From Kiritimatiellia bacterium (lineage in GTDB: Bacteria; Verrucomicrobiota; Kiritimatiellia; RFP12; UBA1067): a stretch of 64,000 nt of DNA. Shown here one piece after another: positions 31,364-48,229 of this stretch. The translations under genes were made by a program, and so were the position numbers. Location of the stretch: assembly GCA_050949565.1 (NCBI GenBank), contig JBMNFY010000017.1, forward strand, positions 1,216,001 through 1,280,000, read 5' to 3'. Below the pieces are notes generated by a model. The model was not told where the DNA came from, did not search any database, and was given only the letters and a program-made list of their open reading frames with translations. The stretch's first letter is position 1. Every line of letters starts with the position of its first letter.

Positions 31364-34257
31364 ATGAAAAAGACGACATTACACGCTTTTATCAGTGACG
31401 CGCTCAGGGTGGCATGCGCAGTGATGGGTTTTGCGCTTGCGGCATCGGGTGCTCCTTTGACCGAACGCGAAGTGCTCGACAGATTATCCATCTGGATGGA
31501 CGGCCATCCGGTGATGGGCAGTCTGGCGGGAAGCACCATCGCGTCAACAGTTCGATTTCCGGAAAACGGCGATGCCTACAGCGTGTACGTTGTGGCGTTC
31601 TCGCCGATCGGCTATGCCGTGCTCAACAGTGATGACCGGCTGCCGCTTACCGTCGCCTTTAGTGCATCGTCAAGCGTCAATTTGGCCGACCTGCCCGATA
31701 ACGCCTTCCGCGCCGCTCTGCTGACCCATGCAGAAAAGGCACTGCAAGCGCTGCGCGGGATGGACGCCGCGGCCGCGCCCGACCTCTCCTACCGCCGCGC
31801 CGCGAGCCGCGGACCTCTGAGCATTGAGCAATACGGTCCCTTCCTGACGACTACTTGGAACCAGTGCAATCCGTACAACCTACTGTGCCCTGATGACCCC
31901 AACGGCAGTGATTACTACGGACACCGCGTGCCGTCCGGTTGCACGCCGACCGCCTACGCGCAGGTGCTCTACTACCACCGCTGGCCGCTCTACGGACAAG
32001 GCACGCACAGCTACACCGACAATAGTGGCTCGATCACCGGCACGCACAGTGTCTGCTTCAGCCCGCCGTTCGGCTGGGCGGCCATGCAGACCGCCTACGA
32101 CCCTTGGGCCGTCTCCCAGCCGGGGGACAATGAAGTCGCCGACCTTATGTACCGCCTAGGTGTCGCCGCCGAGGCCGATTATGAGAACGGCGGCACCAGC
32201 GCAAGTATTCTGACGCTGGGCAACCGCCTTAATACGTATCTCTTTTACGAGCCTATAGGCTACGCGGGGTCGCAGGCCGAGTTGCTGCCGGGCCTTAACG
32301 AGAGCCTGCGCGTAGGCTACCCGTGCGTCATCGCGGTCCCCGGCCACGCGATTGTGGCGGATGGATTGTTGGACGATAGCGGGACTATGTCGTACCACAT
32401 CAACTACGGCTGGGGCGGTTCAAACGACGGCTGGTGGTCCGCCGATAATGTGAACGGCAAGGCGATTAGCTACGGCTGCACCTCGCTCAAACCCATACTG
32501 ATGGCGTTCCCGGCCGCAGCGACAGTGCAGGCGGTAGCCGGCGAGCCCATGACCCTCGAGTGGTGGTTGCCATCCCGCCGTGAACAAGAGGCTGAGCACA
32601 TTCGGCTCCGTCGGCTGACGCCGCATAGCGCAGTCTGGAACTCTGCCGCCGAAACGCTGGACCATACCGTGTCAAGCGGCTGGCAGATCAAACCCGAAGG
32701 CCGCTCCGGCGCGTGCTGGTTCGCTGGGCCGCTCGGCTACAAAGTATTGACGCTCACCGACTTTTTTGTCCCCGATGCTTCGTCGGCACTCACCTTCTGG
32801 ATGCAATGTCGGCTGTCCAGTGCGCCTTTCCGGGTCGCGGTTTCTAGCGACGGCGGGAACACCTACACAACCCTGTTCGAAAAGAACGACAATTATACGT
32901 TGAGTTGGCAGTCCTACACGGTTCCGCTTGGCGCGTATGCCGGCGAGCAACTCCGGATCAGGTTTGAATTGATCCGGGGATCGTACTATCAGAGCGGCGG
33001 CGTCTGGCTCGACGACCTTAGCGTCACCTCCGGCACTTGGTGGCGCTGGCTGCCGTTCATCGAGGATACGACGCTCGCCTCGCGCCGGTATTCCGAACAG
33101 CGGACGCTGCTTGATAACTGTGCCGACTTCTCGATCTTTGAAGTAACGTCCTCATCGACCTACAAAGACTGGGCCGTCAGTACCACCGGTGGCGTGGATC
33201 AGTGCTTCTACAAGCAGCCGGGCGGTTATTCGAACCGCGAATATCATCTGACTGCAAAAGCACCGATCACTCCCGGTACTGGTACGCGGCTGTTGATGCG
33301 CTGGAAGCGTAACCTCGCGGGTGACGGTTTCCGCGTACTGGTCTCGCCTAACCGCTCGACCTTCACAGAGATCTGGAACGCGGGCGGCGCTTCGGATTGG
33401 ACAGAGCAAGCCATCCCGCTCGGTGCCTACGCCGGGCAACCGATCTACCTGCGGCTGGAATATACGACCGGCAGTTATTATTCCAGCGGCGGAGTCTGGA
33501 TCGACACCCTCTGGCTGCAAGATGTCACGAACCCGGAACTGGAGGGCCAGCCCGTACACCTCACGGTTACGACAGCCCCTCTGGAGGTCGGCAGCTACAC
33601 GCTGGCGTCGGTCGTGGAGGACACCAACGCGATATCCCACACGCTTTCGCCGCCATTCACTCTGAACGTCTCGCCGCGTTTCAATCACCGGCTCGAATCC
33701 GGCGGAAGCGTCACGTTGACCAGTTACAACGGTAGCTCCGAGCGGCTGGATATCCCGTCGGAGTGGGCAGGCCAACCGGTCGCGGGCATCGCTGCGAACG
33801 CCTTTGCCGGTACGCCGGTTGTTTCTGTGACTCTGCCTGCATCGATCGCGACGCTCGAAACCGGCGCTTTCGCCGACGCCAGCGCTTTGCAACGACTCTT
33901 TTTCGCGGGCAACGCGCCATCCGCCGCCCCCAACGCGCTGGCGGGCTCGGCGGCGACCGTCTACTATCTGCCGGGAAGGTCAAACTGGTCCGCCAGCTTT
34001 GGTGGCCGGCCGGCCTTGCTGTGGAATCCCGCGCCGGTTCCCGGCGCCGGATTCGGTTTTCAGGGCGGGATTTTTGGCTTCACGCTGACCGGCACGGCGC
34101 ACTGATCCCGGTGCATGTGCAGGCAACCACCAATCTTACATCCGCCGTCTGGTCTTCAGTCACCAACGCCGAGCTTAACGCCGCCGGCACGCTGCAAGTC
34201 CGCGATCCGGAGTCTCCGGCGCATGCGGGACGCTTCTACCGCGTTGTCTGGCCGTGA
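31364..34257 (+). CDS. Secreted C10-family (SpeB-like) cysteine peptidase with beta-sandwich and LRR domains; frameshift near 34098
   Basis: TTWNQCNPYN, SGCTPTA, GHAIVADG, HINYGWGG; C-terminal domain continues in another frame to RFYRVVWP. Confidence 0.85.
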
Positions 34258-34290
34258 GGCGCACACGGGAGGACTGTGGGTGTGGGCGGT

Positions 34291-34313
34291 GTGGCACGGG
34301 CATCTTGCCCGTG
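34291..34313. repeat. Single REP-like palindrome GTGG-CACGGGC-ATCTT-GCCCGTG
   Basis: Same palindrome at ~31274, ~49712 and ~51884 (opposite orientation). Confidence 0.8.
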
Positions 34314-34358
34314 GTGGCGGCGTAAACGCCGCCCACAGAACTGCCGCGCACACCCCTG

Positions 34359-35513
34359 TCACTGACCGGCTACCGCGCTGACGATCGCATCGGCGGCGCG
34401 CGTTGAGGCGTCGCCGGTGCCCAGCAGGGCGTTTGTCTCGTCGAGCGCGGCCAGGGTCTGCGCGCGTGCGTCGGCGTCTGTCAGATAGCGCTGGAGCTGG
34501 TCGGCGAGGCGCTGCGGTGTGAAAGCGTCTTGGATGAGTTCCGGCATGACCTCGCGGCCGGCGATGATGTTGGCGAGCCCCAGATGTTTCACGCCCTTGA
34601 TCAGCCAGCGCCCGATCCAGTAAGTCACGCGGCTGGCGATGTAGACCAGCACGGCGGGGCAGCGCATCAGGCAGGCTTCCAGCGTGGCGGTGCCTGAAGT
34701 GACCGCCGCAGCGTGCGCCTGAAGCATCACGTGGCGTGCCTGGCCATCGACAAAGGTGAGGCGCGCGGGCCGGGTGCGGGCGCGGGCGGCGACCGCCTCG
34801 CCGAGTTCGCGCATGGCCGGGGTGGGGGCGGGAATGATGAACGAGCAATCGCCCTCCAAACGTTCTTCAAGCAGGGTGGCGGCGGCCAGCAGGCGCGGCA
34901 GGATGCGCGTGATCTCACTGGCGCGACTGCCCGGCAGCAGCGCGATGCGGTGCGTGCCGTTCCACGGGAGCGCGACGGGCGGCGCGGCGCGTGTTTCGGC
35001 GGCGCGATCGACCAGTGGATGCCCCGTGAAGCGTGCGTCGAGCGATGTCTGCTTGAAGAGCGCGGGCTCAAAGGGCAGGATGCAGAGCAGCAGATCGAGT
35101 ATGCGCGCGAGTTTCGGGATGCGCCCGCGACGCCAGGCCCAGACCTGCGGACAGATGTAGTGAACCGTTTTGATACTGCGGTCGTGCGCGAAGCGGGCGA
35201 GGCGCAGGTTCATACCGGGATAGTCTACCGTGAGCACGATGTCGGGCTGCCAGACGCGGATCTCGCGCTTCATGTGTCTGATCATGCCCAACAGGAACGG
35301 CAGGTTGCGCAGCACGGGGGTGATGCCAATGAGCGCAATACGGTCGGTGTGATAAAACAACTCGGCTCCCTCGGCGCGCATAGCATCGCCGCCGAAGCCG
35401 CGGAAGACGATGGGACGGTCCACGGCAGCCCGCAGAGCGCGCATCAGGGCGGCGGCGTGCATGTCACCGCTCACCTCACCGGCGCAAATCATGATTTTCA
35501 GAGGGGTGTTCAT
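34359..35513 (-). CDS. lpxB: Lipid-A-disaccharide synthase
   Basis: AGEVSGD, VDYPGMN, PQVWAWR, GHPL, LLPGSR, SGTATLE, PELIQ. Confidence 0.96.
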   Translation of the reverse strand: MNTPLKIMICAGEVSGDMHAAALMRALRAAVDRPIVFRGFGGDAMRAEGAELFYHTDRIALIGITPVLRNLPFLLGMIRHMKREIRVWQPDIVLTVDYPGMNLRLARFAHDRSIKTVHYICPQVWAWRRGRIPKLARILDLLLCILPFEPALFKQTSLDARFTGHPLVDRAAETRAAPPVALPWNGTHRIALLPGSRASEITRILPRLLAAATLLEERLEGDCSFIIPAPTPAMRELGEAVAARARTRPARLTFVDGQARHVMLQAHAAAVTSGTATLEACLMRCPAVLVYIASRVTYWIGRWLIKGVKHLGLANIIAGREVMPELIQDAFTPQRLADQLQRYLTDADARAQTLAALDETNALLGTGDASTRAADAIVSAVAGQ

Positions 35514-36361
35514 ACGGGTCTGAGCGGTGCAGGCGGCAGGCCGGAATCAAGGCCGATGATCGCGATGTTCATGCGGTCGGCGGCGGCGATCACAGCCGGG
35601 CGGTCAAGCAAAACCAAGCGTCCGGCCTGATAGGCGAGCGCCGAGACACCGGCGCGGCGCAACACGGGGATGGTCTTCGCGCCGATCACGGGAATGTCAA
35701 AACGCATGTCGTGGCCATTCTTGGCGACCTTGACCACCACGGCACCGCGTCCGCCCAACTTGCCGCCGCGGCGGATTGCACGGTCGGTGCCCTCGAATGC
35801 CTCGACGGCCAGCACCATGCCGTCCTTCACGAGCAGCGTCTGGCCGATGTCCAGGCCGCAGATGTCGCACGCGACCCGGTGCCCGAAGGCGATGTCACTC
35901 GCCTCGCGTTCGTCCGGCGCGCGGCGGGTAAGCACGCCCACGCCGGGAATGTGCTCATCCATGTAACAGGAAGCCGGCAGCATGCGGATGCCGACACGTT
36001 CCACCTCGATTGCGATGCGTCCAAAAATCGTATGCGCGTTTTTGACGGGCAATTCCTTGAGCCAGGTGCGCGCCAGCGTATCGAAACGCGTACGAAAGAG
36101 CGCGATCGGGGTGATGCCGCCGGCCATAATGCCGTGGGAGAAGTCCATGCTCGTGACCCATTCGAAGATACGCTGGATCTCGCCTACGCCGAACCAGACG
36201 CAGGTGTCCGCCAGTGCGGCGGTGGCGCGGGCGGTCGAGCCGCGTAGCGCCAGCATGGTGATGCGTTGGACACCGGCTTTGCGCGCGCCGACGGCAATAC
36301 AAGCGGGGTAGGTGCCGTCACCCGCGACGATCAAAAGATGACGGATGGGTTCAGGAGTCAT
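35510..36361 (-). CDS. lpxI: UDP-2,3-diacylglucosamine pyrophosphatase
   Basis: LDIGQT, AVEAFEGTD, DMRFDIPVIG; directly upstream of lpxB. Confidence 0.92.
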   Translation of the reverse strand: MTPEPIRHLLIVAGDGTYPACIAVGARKAGVQRITMLALRGSTARATAALADTCVWFGVGEIQRIFEWVTSMDFSHGIMAGGITPIALFRTRFDTLARTWLKELPVKNAHTIFGRIAIEVERVGIRMLPASCYMDEHIPGVGVLTRRAPDEREASDIAFGHRVACDICGLDIGQTLLVKDGMVLAVEAFEGTDRAIRRGGKLGGRGAVVVKVAKNGHDMRFDIPVIGAKTIPVLRRAGVSALAYQAGRLVLLDRPAVIAAADRMNIAIIGLDSGLPPAPLRPV

Positions 36362-36443
36362 GTGTTCGGAGTATACCGGATGAGGAAAGGATGAGGGAAG
36401 GGAGAAGTTTGGGTGTAACGCGGTAACGTCGGTCGCCAACTTT

Positions 36444-36472
36444 TTGCTAACACTTCAGCGGACGGTTATGAT
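36444..36472 (+). promoter_or_regulatory. Candidate sigma70 promoter of the VTC-CotH operon
   Basis: TTGCTA-N17-TATGAT. Confidence 0.5.
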
Positions 36473-36509
36473 ACGCTGTACGGTTGTAACCTAGAGTTGG
36501 GGAGCGTGT

Positions 36510-37331
36510 GTGTTCAGAAAGGGCAGACAGTCTAGTCGGGATATGGTGACGCGGTATGAGGCGAAGTACATCATTCCGCGTTCACGTGTTCCTGAAATAC
36601 GGGCGTTTATCCGCCCGTTCTGTCGGCCTGATCCCTGCGCCCACGGCAACCCGCCGGAGTACACAATCACCACGTTGCAGTTGGACGATTCCCGTTATTC
36701 GCTTCACAACGCTAAGGAATTCGGGGCGCTGAATCGTTTCAAGCTGCGGGCGCGGACCTACGGCACGATCGGTTCGACGCCGGTCTTCGCGGAGGTCAAG
36801 TCGAAGTTGGAAGACACGATCATCAAATCCCGTGCGGCGATTCCCTTTAAGGCATGGAACAGGGAACTGGTGTTCGGGGTGCATCTGCCCAATTTTTTCC
36901 ATAGCGAGCGGCAGGAGATCGATTTTTTGCAGTTCAGGCGTTTGGCTTGGGAGATCGGTGCCGAACCCAAGGTGCTGGTGCGTTATATCCGTGAATCTTA
37001 CGTGGGGGCGATCGACAGCTACGTGCGGGTAACGTTCGATCGTAACCTGCAATACCAGATAACTGACTCCTGGACCGACTTTGGGCGCAGTGGTTTCTGG
37101 CGCGGCATGGATTCGACCGAGGCGCAGGGATTCGGACTGCCCTACTCAGGCGTGGTGATGGAAGTGAAAACGCTCTCCCAAACACCGGCCTGGGTGATGG
37201 ACTTGGTGGAACGATTCGAGTTGAGTAAGCGAGGAAACTGCAAGTATTCGACCGCCATCTGGCGCGAGGGGGTCTTTACGAAACACCCCGGAACAAATTC
37301 TGAAACTGAAGAAGCGTTGGTGAGCCTGTAA
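36510..37331 (+). CDS. VTC-domain polyphosphate polymerase (CYTH/TTM superfamily)
   Basis: RYEAKY, RFKLRARTY, EVKSK, YIRESY, RVTFD, MEVK, CKY. Confidence 0.85.
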   Translation: MFRKGRQSSRDMVTRYEAKYIIPRSRVPEIRAFIRPFCRPDPCAHGNPPEYTITTLQLDDSRYSLHNAKEFGALNRFKLRARTYGTIGSTPVFAEVKSKLEDTIIKSRAAIPFKAWNRELVFGVHLPNFFHSERQEIDFLQFRRLAWEIGAEPKVLVRYIRESYVGAIDSYVRVTFDRNLQYQITDSWTDFGRSGFWRGMDSTEAQGFGLPYSGVVMEVKTLSQTPAWVMDLVERFELSKRGNCKYSTAIWREGVFTKHPGTNSETEEALVSL

Positions 37332-37347
37332 AGGAGCAGTGTAAACC

Positions 37348-38043
37348 GTGAACGTGCATGACTATCTGGCCCTGTTTTTCGGGACGCAAGAGCCGCTAAA
37401 CCCGGCTCTTGTGGCGGGGGCGATGGTGCTGAGTTTCCTGCTGGCCATCCTCATCGCGACCGTGTACCAGGTCACCTTCCGCGGCTTCACCTACTCGCGC
37501 TCCTACATCCACACCATGGTGCTGGGCAGCATGGTGACCTGCATGTTGATCATGGCGGTTGGCAATAACATCGCGCGCGGCATGGGCATTCTGGGTACAT
37601 TGGCGATTATCCGTTTCCGCACGCCGGTACGCGACCCACGCGACGCCATGTTCCTCTTCGCTTGCCTCGGCGTCGGCATTGCCTGCGGTGCCGGCACGCC
37701 GGTGGTCGCGGTGATCGGTACCGGTTTGATCTGCGCTGCAGCACTGCTGTTGCACTGGATACCGTTCGCCTCGCGCCGCGACTACGAAGGCCTGTTGCGT
37801 TTCATCATGCCCGTCGATGACGCAGAGACCGCGCAAACTGCGCAGGAGATTCTCAAACGCTACTGCTCCTCGTTTTATCTGCTCGGCATGCGCGATGCGG
37901 AGCAGGGCGATGCCATGGAGTTTTCGTACCAGGTGCGGTTGCTGGATCCGGCCTATCAGCAAGATCTCGTCGCCGCCTTCAAAAAAGCGGGTGGCTTTTC
38001 GGACCCCGTGCTGCTGTTGCAGCGTACGACGGTAGAACTGTAA
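37348..38043 (+). CDS. DUF4956 family membrane protein
   Basis: YSRSYIHT, GNNIARGMGILGTLAIIRFRTPVRD, GIACG; several TM helices. Confidence 0.88.
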   Translation: MNVHDYLALFFGTQEPLNPALVAGAMVLSFLLAILIATVYQVTFRGFTYSRSYIHTMVLGSMVTCMLIMAVGNNIARGMGILGTLAIIRFRTPVRDPRDAMFLFACLGVGIACGAGTPVVAVIGTGLICAAALLLHWIPFASRRDYEGLLRFIMPVDDAETAQTAQEILKRYCSSFYLLGMRDAEQGDAMEFSYQVRLLDPAYQQDLVAAFKKAGGFSDPVLLLQRTTVEL

Positions 38044-38058
38044 GGACAGTGAATCAAG

Positions 38059-39264
38059 ATGAAGACCTCATATAGACGACCCATGCGGCTGCCCTTCAGG
38101 CTGATTCTGAAACGCCTGATGCGGGTCTGCTTCATATTGCTCGTGATAGGTCTGATTCCCTTTTTCCTCTGGTTCCAGACGCAAGATCCTAAAGCGTACC
38201 GTTTCAACGGCGTGGTCGAGAGTGAGGCCGAAACCGTGGGTCCTGTCGAGACCGCGCGCATTCTGTCGATCGAGGTCCAGTCCGGACAGTCCGTGAAGGC
38301 CGGCGACGTGCTGGTGCGCCTAGACCCCGCCGACCGCGCGATGGACTTGGCCATGAACGAGGCGCGCCTTAAGAACTACGAGCAGGATCTGTTACGCTAT
38401 GAGCAGGACATCGTCCGGCAGCGGCAGGACTTGCAGGACTCCGAGCGCCGTTGCCGTCAAGCCGTACGCGAAGCGGAGACCGCCATTGAGACCGAACGAA
38501 TGAACCGCACCCGTGACGCGGCCGAACTGGCTGGTCTGCAAGCCGAGATCAAACGCCTGCAGCCCTTGATCGACCGGCGGCTGGTCAGCGAAACCGAGCT
38601 GTCGCGCCTGCGCCCCGCTGCAGAGGCTCTCGCCACCACGGTCGCCGAATACACGCCCCTGCTCGCCACCTTGGAAAAACAGCACGCGCGCGCGATTGAG
38701 GACCTGAACGAGGTCAAGGCGCTGCTGGCCGAAACAGCAACGAAAGGCACCGATGCCGATCCGATCCTTACCACCATACGCCAGGCTGTGGAGACCTGCC
38801 GCAAGGCCGCCACCAACGACCCCTCTGTGCTGCGTGCCTCGCGTTCCGGCGTGGTGTCGTGCGTCCTACGCCAGCCCGGCGACGTGGTGACGGGCGGCGA
38901 GCCCGTGGTGCGCGTGGCCGCATCAAGCGCGCTCTATATCACCGGAATGCTGACACAGCACCAACTCCAAGACCTGAAGGTCGGTGACATCCTGCACGTC
39001 GCACGCGCGGCAGCCGGTCAGCGTGAGACGCTCAAAGCACAGGTCGAGGTCATCGCACCTGAGGTGATGGACCTGCTGGACCCTTTCAATCCAGTACCGC
39101 GCTTTCCGCTACGCGGCCGGCGTGTACGTATGCGCGTTCTGGACGAGAACAACGGCCTGATTCCCGGTGAGACTGTGACTTTGGAGTCGGGGCATCGCGA
39201 GACCTGGCTGGAGGGGGTCAAGCGCATCTGTTTTTTTTCTGGAACTCCGCCAGCAACGCCATAA
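38059..39264 (+). CDS. HlyD-type periplasmic adaptor (membrane fusion protein)
   Basis: N-terminal TM; lipoyl halves GQSVKAGDVLVRLD and LRASRSGVV...PGDVVTGGEPV; long coiled coil. Confidence 0.85.
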   Translation: MKTSYRRPMRLPFRLILKRLMRVCFILLVIGLIPFFLWFQTQDPKAYRFNGVVESEAETVGPVETARILSIEVQSGQSVKAGDVLVRLDPADRAMDLAMNEARLKNYEQDLLRYEQDIVRQRQDLQDSERRCRQAVREAETAIETERMNRTRDAAELAGLQAEIKRLQPLIDRRLVSETELSRLRPAAEALATTVAEYTPLLATLEKQHARAIEDLNEVKALLAETATKGTDADPILTTIRQAVETCRKAATNDPSVLRASRSGVVSCVLRQPGDVVTGGEPVVRVAASSALYITGMLTQHQLQDLKVGDILHVARAAAGQRETLKAQVEVIAPEVMDLLDPFNPVPRFPLRGRRVRMRVLDENNGLIPGETVTLESGHRETWLEGVKRICFFSGTPPATP

Positions 39265-39360
39265 ACGTGCGCTGAGCGGGCATTAGGTTGAACAAGGCAT
39301 GCGGCCATGCCGCGAGGGATCAAAAGGAACAACTTTCAACGTTCAAGTTGTAGGCACATC

Positions 39361-40849
39361 ATGGTGATAAGGCGAGTATGGCACACCGCAAAACGTTGCG
39401 TAGCCGGAACGATCGTTCTGGCTGTTGCTGGTTGCTCTACAGTCGAAGACCAGACGCTCGCCATGTCCAAGCCCGTAACCCAAACAGATACGGCATCCTC
39501 TGTTCCGGCGACACCACCAGCCGAGCCGCCAGCCGAAGGCTACGACTGGAATACTCTAGCCCGCATGGCGGCGGCTAACTGCAGCGAAGCCCGCGCCCTG
39601 CTGTTAGATGCGCAGGCGGAACGCAACAAGACGGCGGTGGACACCGGCTGGCGTAACCCCCGGCTCCGTCTGGGACACGGCTGGATCGACCAAGACAACG
39701 ACACGCCGGGACGATCCGGCATGCGGACCTACCCCGACGAGGCGGGCTCGCCGCAACGACCGTTTAGGAGCTACCGTGAATGGGATGACCGCTCGTTCAC
39801 GGAGCGATCCGTGGGGCTGCGCGTCTACACGGCCAACCCCTTTGTGAACCGTTGGCTGCGCAAGCGCGGCGAGGCCGCAGCGCGCGCGATCGAGAAAGAG
39901 TCAGAGGAGGAGGCCTACGCGATCTTCTGCGAAGTCAAGACGCTCTGTCTGGAGGCGGAGCTACTACGCGAGGAGAGTCGGTCTGTTAGAACGGATGGCC
40001 GAGATCCGCACAAAACTGCGCGACCTGCGCCGCGAACAGTCTGAAGCGGGTGTGACCAGTCCGCTCGACCTGGTCCACGCCGAGACGAAGTTAGCGTCAC
40101 AACGCTCTGAGCTTTTCGGCAAGCGGATGGCGCGGCAACAACTCGTGCGGCGCATTGCCGTGCTCGCCGGCGTACCGGCCGAAGGGCTCCGCCTGCGACC
40201 GCGCACAACGGACTGGGTGCCGGTGCCCGCGCATCTAGACGCCGCCGCGCTCACTGATCTCGCCTTCATGCGGCGTCCCGACCTCGCACGATTGGAGCAG
40301 GAGAAAGAGGCCGCAACGTACGCGCTACGTGCCGCGCGCGCCGGACAGATTCCCTGGTTTGAGTATGTCGAGGGCTCGGTTGAAGATACACACGGCGACA
40401 GCTATTCGCGCGAAGAACTCTTCACCGGACGCGACCACACAACGCGTGACGAGACCGAGTGGCAGGTACGGGTCGCCATGACCCTGCCGGTCTTCAACTG
40501 GCTGGGCGACGAGATCCGCCTGACACGCACGCAACTGGCCGCCGCTGAAACGCGCGTGCGCGGACAGTACGACTTGGTCCGATCGGAAGTCAGCGGTGTC
40601 TTGGAGGACTACCGGGCGGCGCAGGCCGAGTGGGCACGCCTGGACAGCGAAGGCGATCGGTTGCGCACCGAGATGTATGCCCGCGTCGAGAGCCTAGCCA
40701 AAGAACCGACCATCAAACGTGAAGAGGTGCTCGCCGTGCACGAGGAGTTGCTGGCCTTTCAGCGTGTCTGCCTCAAGGCCGAACGCGAATGTCTGTTTAT
40801 CGAGCAGTGCTTGGAGACCGTAAGCGGCGGAGCGCTGCCGACAGAATAG
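39361..40849 (+). CDS. TolC-family outer membrane lipoprotein; +1 frameshift near 39977
   Basis: Lipobox VAGC; WRNPRL, AGVTSPLDL, RRPDL, LPVFNW. Removing one G at ~39977 joins ORFs 39307 and 39995. Confidence 0.75.
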
Positions 40850-40859
40850 GAGGAACACC

Positions 40860-43800
40860 ATGAACATACCGACCACAAACACCGGCCGTCACAACCGCCT
40901 TCTGAGCTTGACCGTTTTCGCACTCGCAATGTGCATGAGCGCCCGTGGCGCACTCGTCGTTAACGAGGTCTGCTACGACAACTCGATGGTACCCGACGAT
41001 ACCGGCGATACCTCCTCGGACTGGATCGAGTTGTACAACACAGGCCCGGCAGCGGTGAACATCCTGAACTACGGACTGGGCGATGCCAACCCGTATGACG
41101 ATAACAAAGGGGTGCGGCTGCCCAACTACACCATTCCGCCCGGCGGATTCCTCGTGGTCTTTGCCAGCTCGGATCTGCCCGAATACACAGTCTGGACCAA
41201 CGCGCCGGACATCATCGCGATACCCGCCAACTCCGCTTGGCGCTACAACACACCGGCCAGCGCACCGCCCTCAACCTGGAAAGACAGCACTTTCGATGAC
41301 ACCGCATGGGCAAGCGGGATCACGCCGTTGGGCTATAACGACGCAACCCTCAACATGGATTGCGCGACGATCCTGCCATACGGTTCCAACCCCGCAAACC
41401 GCTACCCGACCGCTTACTTCCGCAAGACCTTCAAGATCGTGAACCCGTCCGTCGTGACCGGCCTCGTCGTCCGCGCACGCATCAACGACGGCATGGTCCT
41501 CTATCTCAACGGAGTGGAGCAGAAGCGCATCTACATGCCGGACGGTGCGATCGCTTACTCAACGCTTGCCACGGTGAGTGTACCGCCGACATTCTGGACC
41601 AACATCCTGCTTTCAGCCTCTGGCCTTGTGGCCGGCGATAACGTGCTGGCCGTTGAGACGCACCAAGCCGCAACAGACAGCGTCGACTTGATCATGGACA
41701 TGACCGTCACCGCGCTCGTCGAGGAACAGATGCCGATCGTTCACGGCCAGTTCGGGCTCAAAAAGACCGGCGAGAACGTCCACCTCTTCGATGCCGGATT
41801 GACACGCATCCACAAGTTCGACTCGCCATCCTCAGAGCCTGGCGAGAACAAGACCTACGGACTCGCAGTTGATGGCGTGACCGGCGTTTGTAAAATCTAC
41901 GACCGCCCGACTCCCGGCTTGCCCAACGCAACGTACGCGCAGAAATACTCGGTCGCGCTTTACTCCGAAACGCCGACTTTTTCGGTCGCGCCCGGTTTTT
42001 ATGCCGCCAACCAGTCCGTCGTGCTAAGCACGCCCACGGCCGGCCACAAAATTTACTACACGCTGGACGGCAGTGACCCTTGGGACAGCACCACGTATGT
42101 GTTCAGCGGTGCGGCCATCTCAATCACCGCCGAGGCACCGGCCACCTCCGGCCTCGCGTGGCTGCGCACGAATCCGATTGAGATCGACAGCAGGGTGCCC
42201 GGCACCGCTTGGTTGCCACCGATCGGTAGCATTCCCAAGGCAGTGGTGCTTCGTGCGATCGCCGTCGATAGTATGACCGGCACCACCTGTTCGCCTGAGA
42301 CGCGCGGCACCTACTTCATCGGCCCCTCCTTCACGACCCGCACCCTGCCCACAGTATCGCTCATTACCGACTCCAACAATTTGTTCGGTTTTACCTCGGG
42401 CATCTATGTGCCAGGCAAGTACTACGCCGATTCGCCGACAGGCTACGGCTCAAACAAGTGGGGCAAGCCCAACGCGAATTACCATCAAGACAACGACGAT
42501 GAGGCTTGGGAACGCCCGGTGCAGGTCGAGCTTTTCGAGACCGCACAGAACACCGCCGCCTTTGCCTGCACAGTCGGCATGGCCATGCACGGCGGCGGCA
42601 CGCGCGCCCTCCCGCAAAAGACGCTCTATCTCATCTCCCGCCTCGGCACATACGGCACAAGCCATATCGACTATCAGCTCTTCCCTGACGAGAGCGGCAC
42701 AAGTTACAAGCGCTTCCTGCTACGCAACAGCGGCAACGACTGGTACGGCCCGATGTCCGGCGGCATCGCCACGATGCTCAAAGACGCGGTTTTCCATCGC
42801 ATCGTCAAAAAACTGGACACCTCGGTCATGGCCTATCGCCCCGTCACCGCCTACATCAACGGCGAGTACTGGGGCATCCATAATCTGCGCGAAAGCTTTG
42901 ACAAGCACTACCTCGCCACGCGCTACGGGCTGGACCCCGACAACATGGACATCCTGATGCACGAAGAAGACGCGAAAGACAAGGTCAGAATCACACGCGT
43001 CGACGGCGATAAAAACAGTGACGAAGAGTATGAGGAGTTGATCGACTGGATCGATGTAAACCCGCTCTCCGAGAACATCAATTACGAGCGCGTGCAGACA
43101 GCCGCCGTGTTCACCAACGCACTCGACATTGTGATCACCGGCATCGATGTCACCAACCACGCCGACTACATCATCGCAGAGACGTTCTTCGCCAACACCG
43201 ACTGGCCGATCAACAACTGCGACTTCTGGCGGGCACACACCAACCAGACCGCCACTTGTGGCGCGTTCGGCGACACCCGCTGGCGCTGGATGCTCTACGA
43301 CCTCGACGTCGCCGGCGAAAAGGGCGCGGACTTCAACATGTTCACTTACCTCTCTTCCAAAAAAATGACCGGCCGTCGCGAACCCGGATTTCTGATCAAC
43401 CAGCTTTGGTCGAACTTGAGTTTCCGCAACTACTTCGTGATGCGCTACGCCAATCTGCTCAACACCACCTTCCGCCCCGAGCGCATGACCGCGATCATCG
43501 CCGATGCCACCGACACAATCGCCCCCGAGATCGAGCAACACTTCCGACGCTGGGGCCGCACCTTCACGCAGGCGCAGTGGCGCGCCGCCGTGACCAACGT
43601 GCTGATCGACTTCACCGCCACGCGCCATGCGGTCTCTTGGCAACATCTCGACAGCCACTTCGGCCTAGGTGGGACCGGCACCCTCACGGTGAACAACCAC
43701 GACGCCACGGGTACCGGCGGACGCTTCATCGTCAACGGGATCGACATCACGACCGGCACCGAAGGCGTCACCACGCGCGCCTCTTGGAGCGGCACCTTCT

Positions 43801-44411
43801 TCCGCAACCTGCCGGTCACCGTCGAGGCCGTACCCGACGACGGCTACGCTTTTGACGGCTGGGTCGGCACCGCCGTAGTGAATCCCGCCCCCAGCCTCTT
43901 CGTCGGCGATGCGCCGATCATCCTGACCGCGCGCTTCCGCCCGCTCGACGCACCGGCCTACCAGCCGACCGGCTACGAGCAGTGGCAACTCGCCAACTAC
44001 ATGGAGCAACAGATTCTGGGCACCGGCGAGGCCGCCGCAGACGCGCCGTCAGGTTACGCCGGCATGAGCAACCTTGCGTTGTACGCCTTCGGCATGAGCC
44101 GCTTCGACGGCTTGACCGACGAACAGCGAATCGCCCGCGCCCGCCTCTCCATCCACGCTCAGGACAGTGCGCTCTGGTTGGGTTACACCCGCCTCAACGA
44201 TAGCTTCAGCGATGTGCGCTACACCCTCAAGGTCGCCTCTTCGCTCACCGCGCCTGTGACTTGGAACGACGCCGTCACCGGCCTCGATCTCGACCCCGTG
44301 GCGCTGACCAACATTCTGGATGCCTCGATCTGGTTCTACGAAGTGCGCCTGCCGCAGGCCACGCCAGAGCGGGCCCAGCGTTTCTTCAAGCTGGAGGCAG
44401 AGTTACAGTAA
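40860..44411 (+). CDS. Secreted CotH-family kinase with lamin-tail and Fn3/CHB_HEX-like domains
   Basis: Signal peptide; LVVNEV...SDWIELYN; IYYTLDGSDP; LLRNSGND, YINGEYWGIHNLRE, NTDWPINN, WMLYDLD. Confidence 0.88.
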   Translation: MNIPTTNTGRHNRLLSLTVFALAMCMSARGALVVNEVCYDNSMVPDDTGDTSSDWIELYNTGPAAVNILNYGLGDANPYDDNKGVRLPNYTIPPGGFLVVFASSDLPEYTVWTNAPDIIAIPANSAWRYNTPASAPPSTWKDSTFDDTAWASGITPLGYNDATLNMDCATILPYGSNPANRYPTAYFRKTFKIVNPSVVTGLVVRARINDGMVLYLNGVEQKRIYMPDGAIAYSTLATVSVPPTFWTNILLSASGLVAGDNVLAVETHQAATDSVDLIMDMTVTALVEEQMPIVHGQFGLKKTGENVHLFDAGLTRIHKFDSPSSEPGENKTYGLAVDGVTGVCKIYDRPTPGLPNATYAQKYSVALYSETPTFSVAPGFYAANQSVVLSTPTAGHKIYYTLDGSDPWDSTTYVFSGAAISITAEAPATSGLAWLRTNPIEIDSRVPGTAWLPPIGSIPKAVVLRAIAVDSMTGTTCSPETRGTYFIGPSFTTRTLPTVSLITDSNNLFGFTSGIYVPGKYYADSPTGYGSNKWGKPNANYHQDNDDEAWERPVQVELFETAQNTAAFACTVGMAMHGGGTRALPQKTLYLISRLGTYGTSHIDYQLFPDESGTSYKRFLLRNSGNDWYGPMSGGIATMLKDAVFHRIVKKLDTSVMAYRPVTAYINGEYWGIHNLRESFDKHYLATRYGLDPDNMDILMHEEDAKDKVRITRVDGDKNSDEEYEELIDWIDVNPLSENINYERVQTAAVFTNALDIVITGIDVTNHADYIIAETFFANTDWPINNCDFWRAHTNQTATCGAFGDTRWRWMLYDLDVAGEKGADFNMFTYLSSKKMTGRREPGFLINQLWSNLSFRNYFVMRYANLLNTTFRPERMTAIIADATDTIAPEIEQHFRRWGRTFTQAQWRAAVTNVLIDFTATRHAVSWQHLDSHFGLGGTGTLTVNNHDATGTGGRFIVNGIDITTGTEGVTTRASWSGTFFRNLPVTVEAVPDDGYAFDGWVGTAVVNPAPSLFVGDAPIILTARFRPLDAPAYQPTGYEQWQLANYMEQQILGTGEAAADAPSGYAGMSNLALYAFGMSRFDGLTDEQRIARARLSIHAQDSALWLGYTRLNDSFSDVRYTLKVASSLTAPVTWNDAVTGLDLDPVALTNILDASIWFYEVRLPQATPERAQRFFKLEAELQ

Positions 44412-44421
44412 TGCCCACGGT

Positions 44422-47033
44422 TTATGGGGCGGCTATAAGGTCTATCCAGAAAGAGCGTTTGATGCGCAGGAGCCTGAATTCCGGATTGTTTTCCGACAGC
44501 AGGTAATGGCCCATCCCCTCCGGAAATTTAGCAAAATCCGGATGACGCACCTGAGTCACCACGCCCGCGAACGAGGCGCGCATTGACCTGTGCACCAGCC
44601 TCCTGCCGTTGTCGTAATCGTAATACTGGTTGAACCTGCCTTTGTAGATGCCGGTCATAGGCGAATAGCTCAACGTTGCAAGTGCGCTGTTAGCGCCTAT
44701 GTAGACGTAAGCGTCGCCATCCTTCACCGGCCTGATCCCCTTCTCGATCACAAGGCGTGTTCCCGTCGACATCACCGACACCGCGTACGGCAGCGCCTCA
44801 TATTGCGGCAGCACCGCGCTGCCGGACACATAGTAGGCGACATCGTTAGTTTGCGCACACAGCCAGTATTCGGTGGCCGGTAGCACCGCGCCTTTGCCGA
44901 AGTATCCGCCGCACGGCATAAGCAACGCCTCAAAACCGTCCGGTCCGCTGCCGGGCTTGTCCCAGCGCACGAACCAATCTTCTGACCAGTCCGTATCCAC
45001 AACACCCGTGTTCGGAGCGATCCAAAGCATAGCGCCAATTCCCCCTGCTCGTCTGTACAACGGCTGGAAGAACGGCACGCTTGCCATGCTGCCGTAATCA
45101 CCGAACAGCAGCAGCGTTGATGCCTGCGACACTCTGGTACCGTCCGCCAGCACGCCGGCGATCCTGACGCTTCCCCGAAGTCCTACGGTCATCGTCAAAT
45201 ACCCGCTGCCCTGCGGCTCTTCTTGCGCGGCCCCGTACGACAGTACATCATAAGGGTACAGTGAAACCGTGTAATACCCCCTCAGCCGCGCTAGATCGGC
45301 CTGAGCGTAATTGTCCTCACGATCAGCGAACACATGGTAGGCAGCCTCAATGAGTACTTCTTCGTTCCCCAGCGAACCACCCGACAGACGGCCGTACGCC
45401 ATAATCCAGTTGACCCAAAGCTCAAGAGTCTCGCCGCTCGACCTCTGCATACGGACATAGTAATCGTTGTCTTCCGTCACGCCCTGCCAACCCGTCGCCC
45501 TAAAGCTCAGCGAGCGTCCCTGCAGTACAACCTTCGCCGTGATCCGTCCGCGCTTGGTTATGTTCATTGAGAAGGTGCCACACACATCCGGCAAGGGCTC
45601 TCCGCCCCCAAACCTTTTGTCACGAAAAACCACGCCGGGGTAGGTGCCGAAAGGTCCGATGAGTTCAGGTTGTTGCGGCGTTCCGTTACCGGTGAGCCAG
45701 CCCTTAATCGCTTTATACGTGACATCGAAACGCCCGAAAGCGTCGATGCCTCCGCCCGTCTCACACGATGAACTCCCACCCACAAGCTGCCCGATCAGCT
45801 TCCCTGTCGCATCGAAGAGCGGTGCGCCACTACTGCCCGGCTCCGTCACGCCGTCCGTAAAATTCACGAACCAAAAATCTGGATCAATCGCGTCCAGCTT
45901 GCTGAAACTGATTCGTTTGTAAGCGCCGTCTGGGTGATGGATACAGGTGAGCGTTTCGGTATACGACGGCCTGCTCGTCGACCACCCGACATAGGTGGCG
46001 CCATCCGGTGACGGCGAGCGCAAACGCAGCAACGCAAAGTCATTGCCCGTCTCGTAGGTCTGTCCCGCGAGATAATCGGCGCCACCCTCCGTGACGGTCA
46101 CGGCGGCCAGCGATGGAGGCGCACCGTTGCAAGTCGCCGTCTGGAAAAACCAGTAGAACTCGGTATCGCTGGCCTGGCTCTGGTTGGCGACGCAGTGCGT
46201 CCCTGTCAAAAAGAAATCAACCCATGTGCTATCATCCAGATCGTTCGCAGGCACCCCGTGCAATAGAGATAGTTCGCTTCATAAAAGACCCCAATGCCTG
46301 CAACCCCCCGAGAAGCAGCGTCCCACCCCGGGTAGCAACTCACGTCATTGTGGCAATTTCCCTCCTTGAGCCTTATCGTGCCGGGCGTCCGATAGAGATG
46401 GACCACCTTCCCAATCGAAAACGCGGCGCGCGTAGGGTCGCTTCCCCGTGGCACCCAACACTCTACTGTTACCGTTTGCGCAAAAAGCGCCCCGGACCAA
46501 AACGCCTCGCGATTTCTCATGCTGACGCTGTTATACGGTCCCCGCACAACTGTCGGGTCCTCGGTGTCGAACACCCTGATCTCGCAGCCTTCCGGCAACT
46601 CAACATCCTCGAAATGGACGCGTATCCCATGCGCACCATCGGCACGGAGGGTCGTACACCACACACGCGAACCATCCGCCAGCACCGACCATCCGCCGAG
46701 CGACGCCGGAGCCGCTGATCCTCGCGCCGTGATGCGGTTCGGTAGCTGGCGCACCACACCGATCCGCAATGCTTTTTCGCCCGCCGCAACGGCTTCGGCA
46801 TCCTCCGCCGCAAGTGTCTGCAAGTCCAGTGCTTCAAGCACTATTTGGGGCTCGCACTCCCACTGTCCGGCGGCAAAAGAGTGCGGGAGCGATGGCAAGG
46901 CCTTTGGCACCATCGCCATCGGCCGCACAGCCGACGGTACGGAGATTCCGGATTCGCCCGCTCCGCTACTCAGAACCACCGACAGTGTCACAAGCCCCAC
47001 AACCCCGTTTCCTATCCACCACCGCATTTTCAT
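44422..47033 (-). CDS. Secreted trypsin-like (lysyl endopeptidase-like) serine protease; frameshift near 46246
   Basis: Pro-domain then CTGCL|NDL...LTGTHC (His), DFALL (Asp), IHHP, TEPGSSGAP (Ser). Confidence 0.8.
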
Positions 47034-47117
47034 TTGTCTACCCTTTCCACGACGGCATTCTACATGCCCATCCCTCAATTTTCCGGCCTCAGAAACCAAC
47101 AGGTTCGCGTAGCCCCA

Positions 47118-47146
47118 AGTATGCCACTGCATAGTAATAACGTCAA
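47118..47146 (-). promoter_or_regulatory. Candidate sigma70 promoter
   Basis: TTGACG-N17-CATACT upstream of the protease gene. Confidence 0.45.
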
Positions 47147-47296
47147 TCCGCGCGGTTTATTGTTTGGACTTTTGGGTTGATCAGTCGGATCGGCCTGAAT
47201 CAGTCGGATCTTCTTTGTGGCAAGCGGCAGAAAGCGGGATTGTCATGCCCTTCCAGGGCTGATACCATTCCGGTCTATAAATTCCTTGTAAACGTC

Positions 47297-48229
47297 ATGA
47301 GTAGCGCTGTCCTTAGTTCTATCCTGCCTGTCTGCCTGCTGATGCTGCTGGGCGCGGCGCTACGTCGATTCGGATTCCTGCCGGATCTGTTTTTCGCGCA
47401 ACTGAACCGTCTGGGCTTCTGGATACTCCTACCCTCGTTGCTGTTTTGCACCATCCAGCGGGCACCGCAAGCCGCCAGTGGCGACGGTATACGCGTCGGG
47501 CTCCTGCTCTGTGCCTGTTCGCTGGCCGTGACGGCGGCGGCCTGGCTGGCAGCCCGCGCCATGCGACTCCCCGGTGCTTCGGCGCGCGCACTGATGCAGG
47601 CGGCCATGCGCGGCAATCTGGCTTACACCGCCCTGCCGGTCATCCTGTATGCCTTTGGCGAAAACAGCCAAATGGCGGCAGTCGCCACGTTCGCACTCGC
47701 GCCGGCCATTCCGTTCTATAACTTTTGGGCGGTGGTGATTCTCACCTCGGCTCCGACGGACACCGCACGCGGAAGTCGAAGAGTGCGCGCATTGTTCGCA
47801 GTGCTGAGGAACCCGCTGATCATCGGTTGCCTGCTCGGCGCACTGGCGTGGAAAAGCGGTGTCCCGCTGCCGCAGGGCATCCTGAATGCTGTCACCGCGC
47901 TCGGCAATGCCGCCCTGCCGTGCGCACTGTTGGCACTGGGTGCCGGCTTGACGCCCGCACGTCTGCGCGCCCAATTCCGCCCGGCCTTGGTCGGCACCGC
48001 GCTGAAACTCCTCCTGATGCCTGCCTTCGGTTACCTGTTCGCATGCGCCGCAGGCTTCAACCGCGAGCTGACCTTGGTTGCCCTGCTTTTTCTGGCTAGT
48101 CCCTGTGCGGTCACCTCCTACGTGATGGCCGATCAAATGGGGGCGGACAAAGAACTCGCCGGTTCAGCTATCGTCCTCAGTACACTGCTGTGCCTGCCCG
48201 TCATGGCTGTTCTGTTGCTGGTGTTTTAA
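47297..48229 (+). CDS. AEC (auxin efflux carrier) family transporter
   Basis: LPSLLF, RGNLAYTALP, NPLIIG, LKLLLMP, SPCAVTSYVMA. Confidence 0.88.
   Translation: MSSAVLSSILPVCLLMLLGAALRRFGFLPDLFFAQLNRLGFWILLPSLLFCTIQRAPQAASGDGIRVGLLLCACSLAVTAAAWLAARAMRLPGASARALMQAAMRGNLAYTALPVILYAFGENSQMAAVATFALAPAIPFYNFWAVVILTSAPTDTARGSRRVRALFAVLRNPLIIGCLLGALAWKSGVPLPQGILNAVTALGNAALPCALLALGAGLTPARLRAQFRPALVGTALKLLLMPAFGYLFACAAGFNRELTLVALLFLASPCAVTSYVMADQMGADKELAGSAIVLSTLLCLPVMAVLLLVF

Follow-up and report, generated by a model that had tools for sequence, protein, structure and literature searches.

An operon of an uncultured digester bacterium suggests a way of pushing polyphosphate out of bacteria

How might a bacterium place polyphosphate (polyP) outside its own envelope? 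Bacterial polyP synthesis is usually credited to PPK1 and PPK2, and to our knowledge there is no known route by which the polymer reaches the bacterial surface or the medium. The question is raised by five co-oriented genes in a 64,000-nucleotide stretch of DNA (hereafter the window) from an uncultured Kiritimatiellia bacterium (GenBank assembly GCA_050949565.1, contig JBMNFY010000017.1, forward strand positions 1,216,001 to 1,280,000), whose genome assembly comprises 21 contigs and 4.66 Mb at 92% completeness. The genes encode a VTC-domain protein, a DUF4956 membrane protein, an HlyD/EmrA-type adaptor, a TolC/NodT-type outer-membrane factor and a CotH protein (Table 1). The same genome carries PPX and PPK1 side by side (G000:C17:1574722-1577181), approximately 320 kb from the operon, while no PPK2 was detected in it. 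The VTC protein is therefore not the only polyP synthase of this organism, and the canonical polyP pathway is encoded separately from the genes considered here. We propose that the operon specifies a trans-envelope machine for polyP synthesis and export, a reading to which we assign a probability of roughly 0.55.

The evidence which carries this proposal is the conservation of the genes as a unit. When 40 relatives were searched with the adaptor and the VTC protein, strong matches to both were found on the same contig, approximately 0.7 kb apart, in nine genomes from six genera, and eight of these loci were fetched. The order VTC-DUF4956-adaptor-TolC was present in all eight, which represent six genera of the same family. 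CotH then followed in six of the eight loci, and the other two were limited by their contigs, which ended inside TolC or left about 1 kb downstream. A broader set was obtained by scanning genome contigs with a 19-sequence VTC alignment and taking the best 80 of 364 relatives; since the alignment was made of closer homologues the 80 loci were biased toward the Planctomycetes-Verrucomicrobia-Chlamydiae group, to which almost all of the titles belonged. Neighbors in this set were counted with local profile hidden Markov models built from the first set. DUF4956 adjoined VTC in 79 of the 80 loci, the adaptor followed DUF4956 in 71 of 79 (two of the eight misses were contig ends and one a possible adaptor-TolC fusion) and TolC followed the adaptor in 65 of 71 (five of the six misses were contig ends). 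CotH was found within the fetched locus in 24/80. An earlier reading of the window made from its letters alone (the sequence-only reading) had named a lack of conservation of HlyD and TolC with VTC and DUF4956 as a main ground for refuting its proposal, and the adaptor and TolC counts of the broad set point the other way. At L062:3581-6259 an open reading frame (ORF) of 893 residues lies directly after DUF4956 and matches the TolC profile, representing either an adaptor-TolC fusion or a read-through artefact.

An even sample of the phylum gave a similar picture for the first three genes. VTC was found in 63 of 401 genomes, and the 40 best of 73 rows were fetched, the remaining 33 being weaker or already included. 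DUF4956 lay beside VTC in 36/40 of these loci and the adaptor lay after DUF4956 in 28/36, one of them counted by eye where the ORF call was over-long; the gaps between DUF4956 and the adaptor were of a few bases. Clustering of 629 flanking ORFs from 117 loci revealed no further family in more than six loci, indicating that no conventional pump travels with these genes. A family scan of neighboring ORFs in the window likewise found no ABC, RND or MFS gene in the operon or adjoining it, so that the absence of an ABC or RND pump, remarked upon in the sequence-only reading, holds both here and across the loci compared. VTC-DUF4956-adaptor-TolC is thus conserved as a cassette within Verrucomicrobiota, including Kiritimatiellia and Lentisphaeria. 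Two cassette-bearing contigs, L108 and L125, came from metagenome-assembled genomes (MAGs) labelled Treponema sp. and Bifidobacteriaceae. The latter label (L125/G430) probably reflects a mistake in binning or labelling, since a genome search placed the L125 genome in the phylum of the window.

What accompanies VTC and DUF4956 when the adaptor is missing is also informative. In four of the eight adaptor-less loci of the even sample DUF4956 was immediately followed by a same-strand Porin_O_P gene (E 2e-11 to 1e-7), so that a porin of the OprO/OprP family replaces adaptor and TolC in some loci of the same phylum; the window itself contains none. OprO is selective for polyphosphate. Porin_O_P seems to give the VTC-DUF4956 pair another way across the outer membrane, and its linkage provides an independent hint at a phosphate substrate. 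We also fetched 14 loci from a second phylum, that of the MAG titled Treponema (G429), where VTC was present in 15/301 genomes. DUF4956 was beside VTC in 14/14, CotH was beside the pair in 10/14 with an eleventh on a weak local match (E 5e-4), and the adaptor was present in 1/14. CotH is therefore part of a wider VTC/DUF4956 theme in which the outer-membrane parts vary. One second-phylum locus without CotH carried a RIO1-type kinase gene beside VTC-DUF4956 (L131:10331-11080).

Table 1. Coordinates of the operon, its promoter-like site and the linked porin genes. Positions without a locus prefix are those of the window.
Feature	Position	Strand	Matches and remarks
VTC-domain gene	36510-37331	+	PF09359 E 1.5e-26; 273 aa
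DUF4956 gene	37348-38043	+	PF16316 E 4e-12; 231 aa
HlyD/EmrA-type adaptor gene	38059-39264	+	HlyD_3 E 2.8e-12, HlyD_D23, Biotin_lipoyl_2; 401 aa
TolC/NodT-type gene, two overlapping frames	39307-40044 and 39995-40849	+	OEP in both pieces
CotH gene	40860-44411	+	CotH (PF08757) E 5.7e-42; 1183 aa
Promoter-like TTGCTA-17-TATGAT	36444-36472	+	9/12 positions match; weak feature
Porin_O_P after DUF4956	L018:11008-12216, L024:7522-8787, L029:7073-8461, L043:7507-8748		loci without adaptor/TolC
Porin_O_P after CotH	L138:6178-7281		second phylum; order VTC-DUF4956-CotH-porin

By Pfam and by profile comparison the VTC protein is a triphosphate-tunnel domain that stands alone and belongs to the Vtc4 polyphosphate-polymerase type. 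A profile built from 41 homologues matched the catalytic domain of yeast Vtc4 (3g3q) with an E value of 6.9e-25, whereas its matches to the non-catalytic Vtc2/3 were at about 1e-13 (Vtc2 9e-14). Residues R15, E17, K19, R76, R80, R82, E95, K97 and K106 were invariant in 41/41 sequences, as were R161, R173, D177, E218, K220 and K245. K19 aligns with Lys200 of Vtc4 (8i6v_E numbering), taken here as the catalytic lysine, so that this residue is kept along with the basic residues of the tunnel. Within its 273 residues Pfam recognized VTC only, with no SPX domain and no membrane domain, and no hydrophobic segment was found in the protein.

DUF4956 is a candidate translocase. Its predicted structure (predicted local distance difference test score, pLDDT, 84) has five membrane helices at residues 19-137, followed by a C-terminal beta-alpha-beta-beta-alpha-beta unit at 147-224 which is ferredoxin-like and on structure comparison resembles NikR/ACT/S6 folds (Z 9-11). 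In the IRFR motif, R89, F90 and R91 are invariant across two phyla. Searched against the PDB with Foldseek, the model had no match at E <= 0.001; ACT, S6, PduA and MgtC C-terminal folds made up the weak rows. When the membrane domain was modelled alone (pLDDT 84) the best PDB match was to archaeal virus coat helices (Z 8.3), which is helical-bundle noise, and no VTC membrane subunit was among the 50 matches listed. A complex prediction for DUF4956 with the VTC protein, run without controls, returned a score of 0.00 and a mark of 0.32, which weighs neither for nor against contact.

The adaptor begins with a basic N-terminal tail and contains one hydrophobic segment, a putative anchor, at about residues 11-42. 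It matched two subfamily models, EmrA/EmrK at E 3.7e-20 and type I HlyD at E 1.1e-18, neither score reaching its trusted cut-off, and its best solved relative was EmrA (4tko, E 2e-5). In several MAGs the adaptor was split into two ORFs (L005:12881-14085 of G020, with one TGA; L034:7356-8647; L102:2225-3451; L112:11529-12820), and these splits may be assembly errors rather than decay. TolC in the window is itself divided between two frames. Alignment with the congeners G002 and G004 traced the frameshift to one extra G at position 39977. This base was absent from every covering contig in three DNA runs, each from a different study (metagenomes of a bioreactor, an anaerobic digester and wastewater), where the depth with the deletion equalled the total depth (72.5/72.5, 10.2/10.2 and 21.3/21.3). 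Once it is removed the frame is open for 513 residues with no internal stop, and TolC was a single ORF in 7/7 relatives with the whole gene. The sequence-only reading had flagged a frameshift near this position; the lesion could be pinned to a single base, but since that base is missing from the contigs of other data sets and from the relatives, the break is confined to this assembly and most likely reflects an error in the reading of an intact gene. An intact TolC orthologue matched NodT and TolC subfamilies, and a lipobox-like LAVAGC was identified by eye near the TolC N-terminus.

From gene content, gene order, conservation and the conserved residues we infer the following pathway. The soluble VTC protein would act as a polymerase, drawing on a nucleoside triphosphate to make polyP where the inner membrane meets the cytoplasm. 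In contact with it DUF4956, which is probably oligomeric, would pass the growing chain over the inner membrane by means of its five-helix domain with the Arg-Phe-Arg motif and its cytoplasmic ACT-like domain. The EmrA/HlyD-type adaptor would connect DUF4956 to the TolC-type lipoprotein channel, so that the polymer, moving outward, would leave the cell without entering the periplasm. CotH, which in this proposal is co-transcribed with the other genes, would be exported separately via Sec and, once beyond the cytoplasm, may act upon the polymer or together with it.

Two known kinds of system can be compared with this arrangement. The eukaryotic VTC complex (Vtc4/Vtc3 or Vtc2/Vtc1; 3g3q, 7ytj, 8i6v) has a catalytic tunnel domain homologous to the VTC protein described here, and it couples synthesis at the cytoplasmic face to passage of the chain through the membrane (PMC9911596; 10.1101/2023.01.27.525886). 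The logic proposed here is the same synthesis-coupled translocation. However, the bacterial protein has neither SPX nor a fused membrane domain, its partner is DUF4956 rather than DUF202-type helices, and the proposed destination is the cell exterior via adaptor and TolC rather than the vacuole lumen. The second comparison is with EmrAB-TolC and HlyBD-TolC, which share with the cassette an anchored adaptor, here closest to EmrA, and an outer-membrane factor of the TolC/NodT family. In contrast to those systems no MFS, ABC, RND or PET partner is present, and DUF4956, with 231 residues, is the only membrane protein of the cassette. Literature searches for polyphosphate with Vtc4 and TolC, or for polyphosphate polymerase with membrane fusion protein, returned nothing.

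A number of observations weigh against an export machine of this kind. TolC was detected after only 14 of the 28 adaptors in the even phylum sample, and among those examined the adaptors without a detected TolC were mostly followed by unrelated or unassigned genes; the duct may therefore be shared or encoded elsewhere. The broad set and the even sample have several contigs in common, and related genomes are not independent observations. The N-terminal tail and anchor block of the adaptor, with an identity of 0.37-0.39, is less conserved than the lipoyl and barrel parts (0.5-0.6). The membrane domain of eukaryotic VTC subunits is of the DUF202 type, which DUF4956 is not. The residues of the VTC tunnel do not amount to proof of polymerase activity, because they are common to other triphosphate-tunnel enzymes, and all 41 bacterial sequences have Glu at position 17, where Vtc4 has Thr. 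Finally, a porin of the OprO/P type is a passive channel, for which uptake would fit as well as release. Set against these points, the proposal of a synthase, translocase and duct made in the sequence-only reading is sustained in part: the conserved pump-less cassette, the porin variant, the likeness to Vtc4 and the separate PPK1/PPX pair fit it, the polymerase activity, the contacts between the proteins and the export itself being its presumptive side.

The alternative which survives best is that VTC and DUF4956 form an inner-membrane module for phosphate or Mg2+ homeostasis or signalling, with an MgtC-like DUF4956, polyP that stays in the cytoplasm, and an adaptor and TolC that serve some other pump or substrate. 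We regard this as unlikely. A weak similarity of DUF4956 to MgtC would fit such a module, as PF02308 scored 23.5 bits, short of the cut-off of 31.4 for the MgtC membrane domain, and the NCBIfam MgtC model NF011912 gave an E value of 2.9e-4 (20.2 against a cut-off of 255). The ACT-like C-terminal domain also compares with the C-terminal domains of MgtC at Z 9.1 (7qa5; root-mean-square deviation 2.7, 90 residues aligned) and Z 8.6 (2lqj), which lie among many ferredoxin-like folds at Z 8-11. It was suggested that polyP may remain cytoplasmic in Streptococcus (10.1101/2024.04.20.589940), but in the present genome cytoplasmic polyP is already covered by PPK1 and PPX. Half of the adaptors in the even sample could be taken as serving another system, having no detected TolC next to them, yet 71/79 loci of the broad set and 28/36 of the even sample have the adaptor immediately behind DUF4956, a few bases away, and adaptors are normally encoded with their pump whereas no pump family recurs nearby. 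The Porin_O_P alternative, moreover, suggests that what passes the outer membrane is some form of phosphate.

It is also conceivable, but distinctly improbable, that the VTC protein is another triphosphate-tunnel enzyme, for instance a triphosphatase or an enzyme resembling a cyclase, and that the cassette moves pyrophosphate, triphosphate, a nucleotide derivative or another anion. The conserved tunnel residues, being common to the CYTH/TTM superfamily, are compatible with this, as is Glu17 in place of the Vtc4 Thr in 41/41 bacterial sequences, and no characterized bacterial VTC-domain protein was found in the freely accessible literature searched. The Pfam assignment is nevertheless VTC, the profile favors catalytic Vtc4 over Vtc2/3 by eleven orders of magnitude, and a TolC duct with an adaptor would be unusual for a small phosphate compound.

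The place of CotH in the proposed export machine is less clear. The protein contains LTD, CHB_HEX_C/Fn3_assoc, CotH (residues 576-924) and InlB B-repeat-like (Flg_new_2) domains, and its N-terminus, where basic residues precede a hydrophobic segment at 14-34, fits a Sec signal. A phmmer search with the CotH domain of the window alone matched no solved structure, whereas a CotH-domain profile matched Bacillus cereus CotH (5jd9) with an E value of 4.9e-11. In the alignment, the invariant Asp motifs 'NTD' (D781) and 'YDLD' (813-816) have 'NFD' and 'WDYD' as their counterparts in 5jd9. In B. subtilis CotH the catalytic residues are D228 and D251 (PMC7821199), and the two motifs were equated with these by the 23-residue spacing only. 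The whole 4.66-Mb genome contains six CotH-family matches.

An association of the same three families has been described in Gram-positive pel operons, where CotH, a polyP polymerase and DUF4956 are accessory genes (10.1101/768473; PMC12345266), and our comparison with monoderm bacteria is drawn from these two papers. In Streptococcus intermedius, mutants in DUF4956 and CotH had lower Pel and less aggregation, with no mechanism given (PMC12345266; 10.1101/2024.04.20.589940). CotH is predicted to be secreted in the pel case too, and the authors of PMC12345266 state that the three-gene synteny was not found outside pel loci. In contrast to the pel-linked triad, the host here has two membranes and the adaptor and TolC stand between DUF4956 and CotH; among 12 ORFs scanned within 31364-48229 no match to Pel families was found.

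What CotH might do with the polymer is a matter of speculation. Bacteria with two membranes might possess a secretion system dedicated to polyP, leading through adaptor and TolC or, in other lineages, through a porin of the OprO/P type. Exported polyP rather than ATP could then serve the secreted CotH as phosphoryl donor, or as the group which it attaches to surface or matrix targets. We hold this to be quite doubtful. It fits the secreted location of CotH and is suggested by the linkage of the genes, partial in the window's own phylum (24/80) and stronger in the second (10-11/14). That adaptor and TolC instead form a type I-like secretion route with CotH as cargo is extremely improbable, and the sequence-only reading had likewise called CotH an unlikely cargo. 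The CotH gene does come next after TolC in the window and in 6/8 close relatives. We nevertheless rejected CotH as a type I cargo: it has a signal-like N-terminal segment and 1183 residues of folded domains, 44/65 four-gene loci had no CotH in the fetched stretch, and neither the cassette nor its surroundings contain an ABC transporter.

In the window the five genes are separated by gaps of 16, 15, 42 and 10 nt, in order. They had been described in the sequence-only reading as five co-oriented genes behind one promoter. The genes stand, each with family matches at its coordinates, but the promoter does not fare as well. The promoter-like site is located in a 70-nt divergent intergenic region 5' of the VTC gene, and two such matches were observed in the region against 2.0 expected from shuffles, which makes it a weak feature. 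Contigs from an RNA library (run X15) span much of the operon, except 39732-40006; because such libraries may carry DNA, they do not demonstrate its transcription. The operon is flanked upstream by the divergent LpxI/LpxB and downstream by a convergent gene for a trypsin-like peptidase of 613 residues (44422-46263, minus strand), which converges on CotH. This peptidase is retained in the congener G002 (L008), with 79% identity over 458 aligned residues up to the contig end. Approximately 2.4 kb upstream of the operon, at 31364-34105, lies a gene for a 913-residue protein with Peptidase_C10 (streptopain-like), I69 inhibitor-like prodomain, MAM and LRR_5 regions.

With respect to polyP export, the cassette provides a testable set of genes, conserved together and combining a eukaryote-type polymerase with a TolC duct in place of any ordinary pump. 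If the proposal is true, the tripartite export systems would gain an inner-membrane engine of a new kind, and both DUF4956 and the VTC-domain proteins of bacteria would have a first function. A possible answer would also be at hand to the question of where secreted CotH kinases obtain their phosphoryl groups; in the more speculative reading, exported polyP as a donor would explain kinase-fold proteins that work outside the cell. Anaerobic digesters and wastewater reactors, in which the hosts are abundant, are settings where phosphate cycling matters in practice, and the operon of one such uncultured bacterium suggests a way in which bacteria may push polyphosphate out of the cell.

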